Source: Promethearchaeia archaeon (GTDB taxonomy: Archaea; Asgardarchaeota; Lokiarchaeia; Sigyniarchaeales; SOKP01). Taken from it: a stretch of DNA of 38,134 nt. Below the pieces are notes generated by a model. It worked only from the letters and a program-made list of their open reading frames with translations. It was not told the DNA's origin and searched no databases. How positions within the stretch are numbered: position 1 is the first letter of the stretch; each line of letters starts with the position of its first letter. Made by a program: the position numbers and the translations under genes. The DNA is taken from positions 1-38,134 of the forward strand of contig JAHQWH010000085.1 in the NCBI GenBank assembly GCA_029856105.1. The letters are read 5' to 3'. Below, one piece after another: positions 111-4,953 of the stretch.

Positions 111-328
111 ATTTTATCCTTACCTCTAATAAAGGAAAAAAAATTTACATTTAAAAATTTCTGGATATTTGGAGAATTGTGTGATCAAGCAACAAACCAA
201 CTATAATTATTAATTTTTTATTAAAATGGTTAATTTTATTTTTCCTACTTTTTAAAAACCCTATTAAATTCTTACTCTCTACTTATTTATATTGTTTATT
301 ATTATCTCTTCTATTATATTTATTAACC

Positions 329-590
329 TCGATGATGCATAAAGAATGTGGTGCAACTCCACGCTCATTTCCGCTCAATGTTATCCCTCAAGAGCTCCGG
401 ATTATCATAATTAGGGGAGCAAATAGAGATTCTTGTGCCGAGAGAAGCAGTTAAGTAGAGTAAGTATAACCGTGAGAGTATAAAGAAAGCATTTCCGAAT
501 GCTCTTGAAGTTGACGGGATAGAAGCCATAGGGTTATGGCTATTATCCAGAGTTAAGTATGGATGGCAACAGAAATACGATCGGATATAA
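329..590 (+). ncRNA. Candidate structured non-coding RNA of unknown class
   Basis: GC-elevated intergenic island with many stems: GTGG-TGCAACT-CCAC (348-362), TATCCC/GGGATA (382-387/516-521), GCTCC/GGAGC (394-398/416-420), AGCATT/AATGCT (488-503), AGCCATA/TATGGCT (524-541), ATCCA/TGGAT (545-564), closing TCGAT/ATCGG (329-333/580-584). Confidence 0.55.
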
Positions 591-753
591 ATTTTAATCA
601 CTTCTAAGAAGGTAAATTAAAAATAACCTTAAAACTCAAATATAAATATATTTAATTTTTTTATTTATTTAATTCAAAGAATCGCAAAGAATTGACTTTT
701 TGAATATGAATCAACTTTTATCTTAATAAATCAACTCTAAACACTAATAACTT

Positions 754-3909: not shown

Positions 3910-4953
3910 ATGCTTATGTTATCTATATTAGGTGGACTTATTGGTTCTTCTACATTGGGCGTGCTAATAGCATTTTGTAGTTTTGGTATATATTTTTACT
4001 ATATTTCGAGAAAAACAAAGGTTAGACTTCTCTCTATTATGGGGATAAGTCTATTTTTTATTGGATTCTCTTATTTGGGAATTTGTGTCGACTTTTTATC
4101 AATTCTTATAACAGGAAACAACATAAATGTATTTTTACTTGCTTTTTTAATTTGGCCATTTGTGCCTGTTGTTTACGTCTTTGGATCTTATGTAACTGCT
4201 GAATTATTGATACCTAAGATAAAAAAACTCTACATGATCATAATTATTGCTTTAGCTTTAATTTTTGAGCTTAGTATTTTTTTAGATACATTAGGAAACA
4301 TTACGTTTATTGAACCTACCCCTCCTGGTGCTGAATTGATCGATGATAGTCTTATTACAGGGTCAATTGCTGGTCTTATCGGAACTATTTTTACGTTCTT
4401 AGGAATTTTTATATCTGGGATCGGCATGCTTATTAAAGGGTATCGGTTATCAGGGGTAGTTAGAAAGAAATATCATCAGTTAGCAATAGGATATTTAATT
4501 CTTAATGTATCGGCTTTGTTAGATTTTTTGGGTATCGCCGAGATCGTTGCAATAATTCGGATTGCCTCATTAAGTGCCGTTTGGTTTTTCTATTTAGGTT
4601 TAAGGGAAGAACCTGAAAAGCGTGAGAAGAAAGAAAAGAAAAAAGAGATGAAAATTGAGGAATCCTTGTTTAGATTAACTAAAAGACCTGCGCAAATAAC
4701 TGAAGAAGAAGTTACTTATTATCGAGAACAAAAAATATGTATGATATGTAAAGGTAAAGTTAGCGGATTTAATATTTTTTTATGTCCTAATTGTGAAACT
4801 ATTTATCATGAAGAATGTGCTCGTGCTTTAAGTAATGCTGAAAATGCGTGTTGGGTTTGCAATGGGCCTATAGATAATTCAAAACCTTCAAAACCATTTA
4901 AAATTGAATCACCCGATAAGGAACAAATAGGAATAGTAAAACCTATAAAATGA
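3910..4953 (+). CDS. Multi-pass (~7 TM) membrane protein with C-terminal C4HC3 RING-like zinc finger, putative E3 ligase
   Basis: About seven hydrophobic segments, a charged linker, then CMIC-x11-CPNC-x4-H-x2-C-x10-CWVC; GGAGG SD; adjacent to Ubl/E2/E1/JAMM genes. Confidence 0.8.
   Translation: MLMLSILGGLIGSSTLGVLIAFCSFGIYFYYISRKTKVRLLSIMGISLFFIGFSYLGICVDFLSILITGNNINVFLLAFLIWPFVPVVYVFGSYVTAELLIPKIKKLYMIIIIALALIFELSIFLDTLGNITFIEPTPPGAELIDDSLITGSIAGLIGTIFTFLGIFISGIGMLIKGYRLSGVVRKKYHQLAIGYLILNVSALLDFLGIAEIVAIIRIASLSAVWFFYLGLREEPEKREKKEKKKEMKIEESLFRLTKRPAQITEEEVTYYREQKICMICKGKVSGFNIFLCPNCETIYHEECARALSNAENACWVCNGPIDNSKPSKPFKIESPDKEQIGIVKPIK

Follow-up and report, generated by a model that had tools for sequence, protein, structure and literature searches.

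A protein-less mini-transposon of Lokiarchaeia whose structured RNA ends in a TnpB omegaRNA scaffold

Introduction

TnpB guide RNAs (reRNAs, or omegaRNAs) have a pseudoknot between a loop and the 3' end, and their scaffold ends at the transposon boundary (PMC10711439). Elements lacking genes frequently encode omegaRNAs (Meers et al. 2023, PMC10055086), and standalone mobilized omegaRNAs function in trans, according to the summary of Altae-Tran et al. 2021 given in PMC10691335. TnpB-aided retention has been shown for IS605-type elements and proposed for gene-less elements that bear an omegaRNA (PMC10055086, PMC10691335). TnpBs are also found in transposons with inverted terminal repeats, in DDE-associated branches and as Asgard Cas1-associated TnpBs (PMC10691335), and eukaryotic and viral Fanzor elements have terminal inverted repeats (TIRs) as well as duplications of the target site (TSDs) (PMC10711439).

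Here we describe a 401-bp element from a Lokiarchaeial genome, located near the start of a contig of which 38,134 nucleotides were analyzed (this whole stretch is referred to as the window). Labels beginning with G, L, and C denote genomes, loci, and contigs within the analysis, G000 being the genome that holds the window. Like standalone omegaRNAs, the element is mobile and provides a guide scaffold with no effector or transposase gene, the guide being predicted to come from the flank. Genomes with standalone omegaRNAs also hold effector-bearing loci, which is true here of G005 and G009. Unlike them, it resides in a member of the Lokiarchaeia, its cognate TnpB was not assembled in G000, and it adds a 5' domain of ~150 nt that is supported by covariation and was not detected in tnpB-linked omegaRNAs.

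PATEs are likewise minimal nonautonomous elements that combine transposon ends with an omegaRNA and need both TnpB and transposase in trans. However, PATEs (IS200/IS605) use Y1 peel-and-paste transposition, and their asymmetric ends carry subterminal hairpins and are not flanked by a target duplication, whereas inverted terminal repeats, 8-bp duplications, and excision footprints characterize the window element. The window element resembles TIR-borne TnpBs and Fanzors, which are cut-and-paste-type elements with symmetrical ends and both TnpB and guide RNA aboard, and the tnpB 3' end within 250 bp of the transposon end adds to the likeness. It departs from TIR-borne TnpBs in that none of the Lokiarchaeal copies examined, whether tnpB-only elements or others, was seen to have a transposase gene next to it. 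MITEs are similar in size (~400 bp), TIRs, TSD, lack of an ORF, presence in several copies, and origin by internal loss from a longer element, but the interior here consists of a putative promoter and a structured RNA under purifying selection instead of filler. Guide-RNA-only elements are therefore known as a kind, and the conserved 5' domain alone is left unexplained.

Results and Discussion

Filled, empty, and footprint sites delimit a mobile element

The original prediction for this DNA was a structured RNA of about 260 nt, at positions 329 to 590, upstream of a longin-Rab gene. Comparison with relatives placed this interval inside a mobile element occupying 228 to 628 (Table 1). BLAST of 41 relatives returned only four copies, at 93 to 94% identity, one of them a second copy in G000 itself (contig C54). 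At C54 the element is a ~400-bp insertion relative to three genomes that have an empty site in otherwise collinear DNA, and TGGAACG flanks both sides of the filled site while occurring once in the empty one. The syntenic C54 locus was compared across 30 genomes, in which the element was absent from that position. Genome and metagenome scans showed copies at no fewer than five distinct sites, and the 8-bp duplication differed from site to site (TCAATTGG and TGAAATGC are two of them); the metagenome scan contributed seven more copies and one chance match (L063).

Table 1. Features of the element and its immediate flanks, in window positions
Feature	Position	Strand	Evidence or remark
Left target-site duplication copy, TTAAAAT (TTAAAACT minus one base)	221-227	.	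G017 comparison, junctions
Whole gene-less transposon, MITE-like, 401 bp	228-628	+	filled vs empty sites, different insertion sites
Left terminal inverted repeat, GGTTAATTTTATTTTTCC	228-245	+	related ends in full-length tnpB elements
TATA-box-like TTTATAT, putative archaeal promoter	286-292	+	start would fall near 312-316
5' domain, nine nested helices P0-P8	315-468	+	covariation
P0	315-323/460-468	+	
P1	328-331/439-442	+	
P2	337-340/435-438	+	
P3	342-347/429-434	+	
P4	348-351/359-362	+	
P5	363-366/417-420	+	
P6	370-372/414-416	+	
P7	376-380/406-410	+	
P8	383-386/399-402	+	
Variable linker between domains	469-492	+	low conservation
omegaRNA stem A, enclosing small hairpin 501-503/509-511	493-497/515-519	+	covariation
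omegaRNA hairpin B, loop GGGU	524-530/535-541	+	compensatory changes
Pseudoknot 5' strand GGUU, partner 625-628	532-535	+	loop-end covariation between groups
Stem C region, 544-548/583-587 closing a variable insert	544-587	+	weaker than other helices
Right-end hairpin D, 592-598/616-622, inner 601-604/608-611	592-622	+	read from sequence
Right terminal inverted repeat, reverse complement GGTTATTTTTAATTTACC	611-628	-	end comparison
Pseudoknot 3' strand AACC, scaffold end	625-628	+	loop-end covariation
Right 8-bp target-site duplication copy, TTAAAACT	629-636	.	G017 comparison, junctions
Predicted guide, flank-derived, length taken from other TnpB systems	629-648	+	copies diverge after 628
T7 run, candidate archaeal terminator should transcription read through	656-662	+	read from sequence

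The window locus itself exists in several states among relatives. In G017 (L113, C60), TTAAAACT-TTAAAACT stands in tandem with the element gone, an excision footprint; in G005 (L116, C13), an 18-bp fusion of both termini was left as a remnant; and in G009 (L115, C387), the site is empty-like. G050 (L114, C291) has a full-length copy that is decayed, scoring 149 bits against 192 bits for the window copy and having accumulated helix-breaking changes, which is what one would predict where copies are not preserved at their sites. The two ends of the element are 18-bp inverted repeats in which 228 to 245 and the reverse complement of 611 to 628 match at 15 of 18 positions. The element, which derives from TnpB transposons of Lokiarchaeia (Promethearchaeota), is a cut-and-paste mini-transposon that encodes no protein, and the combination of filled, empty, footprint, and remnant alleles makes it a well-delimited archaeal guide-RNA-only transposon.

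The second copy in G000 (G000:C54:5698-6099; L004/L016) is about 92% identical to the window copy and has a 292-aa gene on one side and, on the other, a divergently oriented gene of 278 aa that may be kinase-like. The G000 assembly has 6% contamination, and a strain mixture is possible for this second copy.

Eight-base-pair duplications were observed at 10 sites when mini-elements and full-length relatives were taken together. A TA dinucleotide, mostly as TTA, lies immediately 5' of the duplication in 9 of these 10, and T starts every duplication. A T-rich TAM (TTA, then T) next to the duplication is plausible on this pattern, with 10 sites in AT-rich DNA as its basis.

A search for an autonomous, transposase-encoding partner with the same ends was negative in G000. 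The end motif was present in 22 of the 135 genomes of the family, and none of 30 end-motif loci in the 135 genomes had a transposase within 1.5 kb inward of each end; the loci were tnpB elements, mini-elements, and remnants only. One of the loci, L137 (G097:C127), is a 172-bp mini-element with both ends and a duplication (TTCTTTTG) that is missing the omegaRNA core, indicating that even smaller derivatives get mobilized.

The 3' part is a TnpB omegaRNA scaffold

Positions 493 to 628 are homologous to the 3' end of tnpB together with the right end of full-length TnpB elements. A search with nhmmer found a short diverged relative at G000:C53 (E value, 2.7e-5), and a pattern taken from 511 to 538 occurred at 12 Promethearchaeota loci, in most of which the same 3' 150 nt trails a long ORF. 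This ORF encodes a 401-aa TnpB (Pfam OrfB_IS605, 4.5e-17; Cas12f1-like_TNB, 2.4e-8), and by tblastn, positions 484 to 543 of the window read as the last codons of TnpB (IKKAFPNALEVDGIEAIGLW; 14 of 20 residues identical). The same relationship is seen in a second subgroup, with ends in ...ATGGTCT, where solo RNAs share a 3' domain that is 86 to 89% identical to that of seven to eight tnpB-linked elements and a left end that is 72% identical.

Across solo and tnpB-linked copies, covariation is seen at 7 of the 15 pairs that make up stem A, the hairpin inside it, and hairpin B. Five of the seven pairs of hairpin B have compensatory changes, and the hairpin inside stem A (501-503/509-511) also covaries. 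The closing pair of stem A is A-U in eight sequences, G-C in six, and U-A in the TnpB type resident in G000. Long stems of different sequence occupy the position of stem C in tnpB-linked relatives, and an equivalent of hairpin D is present in tnpB-linked elements.

In all copies, sequences split apart right after ...ATAACC, at position 628, marking this boundary as the end of the scaffold. The loop of hairpin B is complementary to these terminal bases, and the complementarity recurs in three groups of differing sequence: GGUU(AU) with (AU)AACC for the window group, GGACUG with UGGUCU for the second subgroup, and, for the six TnpB genes of G000, UUGAAC with GUUCAA. Within group A, to which the window element belongs, just 4 bp of the pseudoknot are constant once more divergent tnpB-linked copies are included. 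The covariation of stem A and hairpin B, divergence exactly at the element end, and the loop-to-end pseudoknot identify the 3' third, 493 to 628, as a TnpB omegaRNA (reRNA) scaffold by sequence comparison.

Solo members of the second subgroup differ at their left junctions, where L080, L081, L085, and L086 have a conserved TATAT and weakly inverted ends. Target duplications were not seen for solo RNAs of this subgroup, which may move by a mechanism other than that of the window subgroup.

The plus-strand RNA gene includes a nine-helix 5' domain

The element stands out from its surroundings by composition, as was originally noted, with 36 to 47% GC in 100-nt windows from 301 to 600 compared to 15 to 25% in the intergenic flanks. 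Thermodynamic stability was ordinary: the minimum free energy (MFE) of 329 to 590 on the plus strand had a z-score of -0.78, and 44 of 200 shuffles were equally stable, so many stems read by eye are not evidence in themselves. The minus strand had a z-score of -2.2. A minus-strand RNA was set aside, and the plus strand favored, by the orientation relative to tnpB homologs, invariant G-U pairs (e.g., in P6), and a promoter-like A/T box upstream. This box lies ~27 nt upstream of the first helix, is conserved, and falls in the same alignment columns as TTTATAA and CTTTAAT in divergent members. The RNA gene would then extend on the plus strand over about 313 to 628, longer than the ~260 nt first proposed, followed by a flank-derived guide.

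Upstream of the omegaRNA part, helices P0 to P8 were derived by comparison of copies. When 11 sequences were aligned with MAFFT, pairing held in 95% of cells and compensatory changes were seen at six pairs, compared to zero to two when partners were slid. In a model alignment of 21 sequences, 89.6% of cells are paired compared to 38 to 47% with slid partners, 21 of 42 pairs (74 cells) are compensated compared to 5 to 10 pairs, and the observed covariation score was reached by none of 500 shuffles. The 21-sequence alignment was fitted by the model and so favors the structure, but the MAFFT result and the slid controls agree with it.

A covariance model built on the 5' domain alone gave 18 matches in 11 of the 151 genomes of the order and 4 of its 24 genera, with at most four per genome. 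The omegaRNA domain was present in all 18. The 5' domain occurs only in tnpB-less copies, in all of which it stands in place of the tnpB coding sequence; the covariance model found none in tnpB-linked loci with filters off or at default, blastn detected no similarity between the domain and tnpB coding sequence, and RNAalifold gave no comparable conserved fold for the coding part of tnpB at the equivalent position. Subgroups whose sequences are 25 to 30% different elsewhere share a stretch of about 55 nt in the domain with hardly any change. The domain is more conserved than the omegaRNA part, and its single-stranded joints are also conserved.

This collection of homologs and compensated pairs bears out the general claim of a conserved, multistem plus-strand RNA, with P0 to P8, stem A, and hairpin B backed by covariation, and it replaces most of the specific pairings first drawn from the single sequence. 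A T-loop-like hairpin had been proposed at 348 to 362; the hairpin is P4, and its loop is not conserved (GAAACA- and GAGAU-type loops occur elsewhere). Pairing of the two ends, 329 to 333 with 580 to 584, is kept in close copies and lost in divergent members; comparison instead pairs 328 to 331 with 439 to 442 as P1, a competing helix that does covary. The second pair of a supposed pseudoknot between 367 to 371 and 572 to 576 is standard in only 1 of 13 sequences, and 370 to 372 is used by P6. For a switch helix between 388 to 395 and 501 to 508, the 5' strand falls in an apical loop of variable sequence that other members have deleted; 72.9% of cells pair overall, several pairs are broken, and one of the pairs is kept in only 2 of 12 sequences. 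Both the pseudoknot and the switch helix are disrupted in the majority of copies. Taken as a set, the terminal helix, pseudoknot, and switch helix had no measure that stood out from shuffles. Of the two similar purine-rich "loops," CCGAGAG is formed by the 3' strands of P2 and P1, and CCGTGAG lies within the variable linker.

TnpB partners and a model for use in trans

Full-length tnpB elements related to the mini-element are ~1.37 kb long, have related inverted ends of 17 to 18 bp, and are flanked by 8-bp duplications (TTAACAGC, TTAATCTA, and TTAATCAA) inserted between TTA and T. Full-length tnpB-only elements are found at L048, L050, L051, L053, and L055, with others among L124 to L153. In Lokiarchaeia, TnpB guide RNAs are thus carried in elements with inverted repeats and 8-bp duplications, an arrangement described for eukaryotic Fanzors.

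No tnpB was found in cis in about 25 solo loci. Group-A tnpB elements whose product is 85 to 91% identical to the reference TnpB are present within the genus, in G005, G009, and G056, and in the genus mates G005 and G009 (TnpB, 90 to 91%), the mini-element and a full-length group-A tnpB are both present. A group-A tnpB was not found in G000, an assembly that is 92% complete in 238 contigs, where the best tblastn matches to group-A TnpB, at 46% identity, belong to another group whose pseudoknot differs. The only group-A tnpB traces in G000 are a ~270-bp mini-element (G000:C53:~3925-4170) composed of the left end, the last 27 codons, and the right end of a group-A tnpB, and a separate C-terminal tnpB remnant (G000:C48:9586-9751). 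With no group-A tnpB assembled in G000, the window copy may lack a partner at present. The other-group TnpB genes of G000 number six (on C197, C124, C48, C158, C96, and C137), their right ends finish in GTTCAA, and the one on C124 has an internal stop.

Our preferred reading, which we regard as probable, is that the protein-less transposon at 228 to 628 carries as its cargo one plus-strand RNA gene, the 3' part of which is a TnpB omegaRNA that is used in trans by the TnpB of relatives. Transcription would start from a promoter within the element's left part and run past the right end into the flank, so that the guide would be copied from the element's own insertion site, beginning with the target duplication at 629. 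TnpB from a full-length relative would take up this RNA in trans and cut element-free copies of the site, for which the consensus is TTA and then T. Repair templated by the occupied copy would then put the element back, giving it a borrowed retention (homing) function, and the transposase recognizing the shared inverted-repeat ends would be borrowed as well. The comparisons show mobility, homology to tnpB right ends, a covarying RNA structure, and a scaffold that stops at the transposon boundary, and from there we infer transcription, loading onto TnpB, cleavage, and the TAM. The 8-bp duplications and inverted repeats are unlike those of classical IS200/IS605 elements, so the homing logic needs a TAM adjoining the duplication; the observed target preference plausibly fits guide-directed retention with such a T-rich TAM.

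Present activity of the window copy

The element could also be an inert relic, a dead deletion derivative of a TnpB transposon whose structure reflects selection during spread only and whose copy here is inactive. This alternative bears on present activity and not on identity. Consistent with it are the failure to find the cognate tnpB in G000, the helix-breaking changes in the same-site copy of G050, the loss, remnant, and footprint at this site in relatives, and the patchy distribution among 11 of 151 genomes. The window copy, however, scores 192 bits against 200 bits for the best copies, its differences from the other copies read are mostly wobble compatible, the ~55 nt of the 5' domain hardly vary between subgroups 25 to 30% apart elsewhere, and the promoter-like box is retained. 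We consider an inert relic unlikely.

Possible roles of the 5' domain

The 5' domain could be a new functional RNA module that gene-less elements have added to the TnpB guide RNA, which would make the element an RNA-level hyperparasite of TnpB transposons. This we offer tentatively, as an idea we would sooner doubt than assume. Such a module might allow the RNA to compete for TnpB or to capture it, stand in for processing signals that disappeared along with the tnpB mRNA, or bring in the transposase. If the domain affects TnpB loading or RNA processing, it could inform the making of OMEGA guide RNAs and the way nonautonomous elements exploit them, and a true hyperparasite of TnpB transposons would be one in the archaeal lineage closest to eukaryotes.

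Alternatively, 315 to 468 could be a cargo RNA with a function of its own (a regulator, decoy, ribozyme, or protein scaffold), with the omegaRNA part being only the right end of the vehicle. The confinement of the domain to tnpB-less copies, its greater conservation than that of the omegaRNA part, and its conserved single-stranded joints would suit such a cargo. Against this, the omegaRNA domain accompanies every one of the 18 matches, the 5' domain has no Rfam match, and solo copies keep the omegaRNA covariation and pseudoknot, which argues for RNA-level constraint there too. An independent cargo is a rather improbable account of the domain.

Regulatory, coding, and other identities

A cis-regulatory role was part of the original prediction, which allowed for a novel Asgard noncoding RNA or a divergent riboswitch and saw a loose likeness to the cobalamin riboswitch. 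The RNA does lie 125 to 165 nt upstream of the ORF at 754, the longin-Rab gene, on the same strand. This placement is an accident of insertion, because other copies have other, unrelated neighbors, and because in relatives the site is empty or has a footprint or remnant; genus mates have the longin-Rab gene without the element. A search of the whole window against Rfam had no match at gathering scores, positions 150 to 800 had no relevant one at E values of ≤10, and the proposed switch helix and pseudoknot failed comparative tests. A riboswitch or other element controlling the longin-Rab gene is therefore highly improbable. The conserved, structured noncoding RNA survives from that proposal, with neither a riboswitch nor a new RNA class attached to it, and a false lead toward a new riboswitch or Asgard-specific regulatory RNA before the longin-Rab gene is removed.

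Least credible of all is a small protein gene, either a 78-aa minus-strand ORF (365 to 601) or a 40-aa plus-strand ORF (332 to 454): all four close copies keep the 78-aa frame open, but most base changes between copies are nonsynonymous, L067, L083, L084, and other subgroups have breaks or shifts in the frame with no conserved peptide, and the G-U pairs and covariation fit a plus-strand RNA.

Several standard RNAs were also considered and rejected as identities for the element. Covariance models gave no match to the cobalamin riboswitch (RF00174) or any other Rfam family, and no tRNA or tmRNA was found. ACAGAA-type motifs had looked suggestive of archaeal RNase P RNA (RF00373), but there was no match at the element, and a standard RNase P RNA is present in 18 of 24 genus mates, one of which, G005 (115 bits), has the element as well. 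In G000, a 92%-complete assembly, there is no RF00373 match, whereas the 18 genus mates score 115 to 142 bits; the RNase P RNA of G000 is probably unassembled.

Beside one of the solo RNAs, at L059:3-2252 on the minus strand, lies an ORF that by its sequence is a candidate NAD-dependent epimerase/dehydratase with an intein-like insert. Signal recognition particle (SRP) RNA is located elsewhere than the element, at G000:C8:45383-45695, where the match to archaeal SRP RNA reaches 55.5 bits against an Rfam gathering score of 96.5, suggesting that the SRP RNA of this lineage is divergent.
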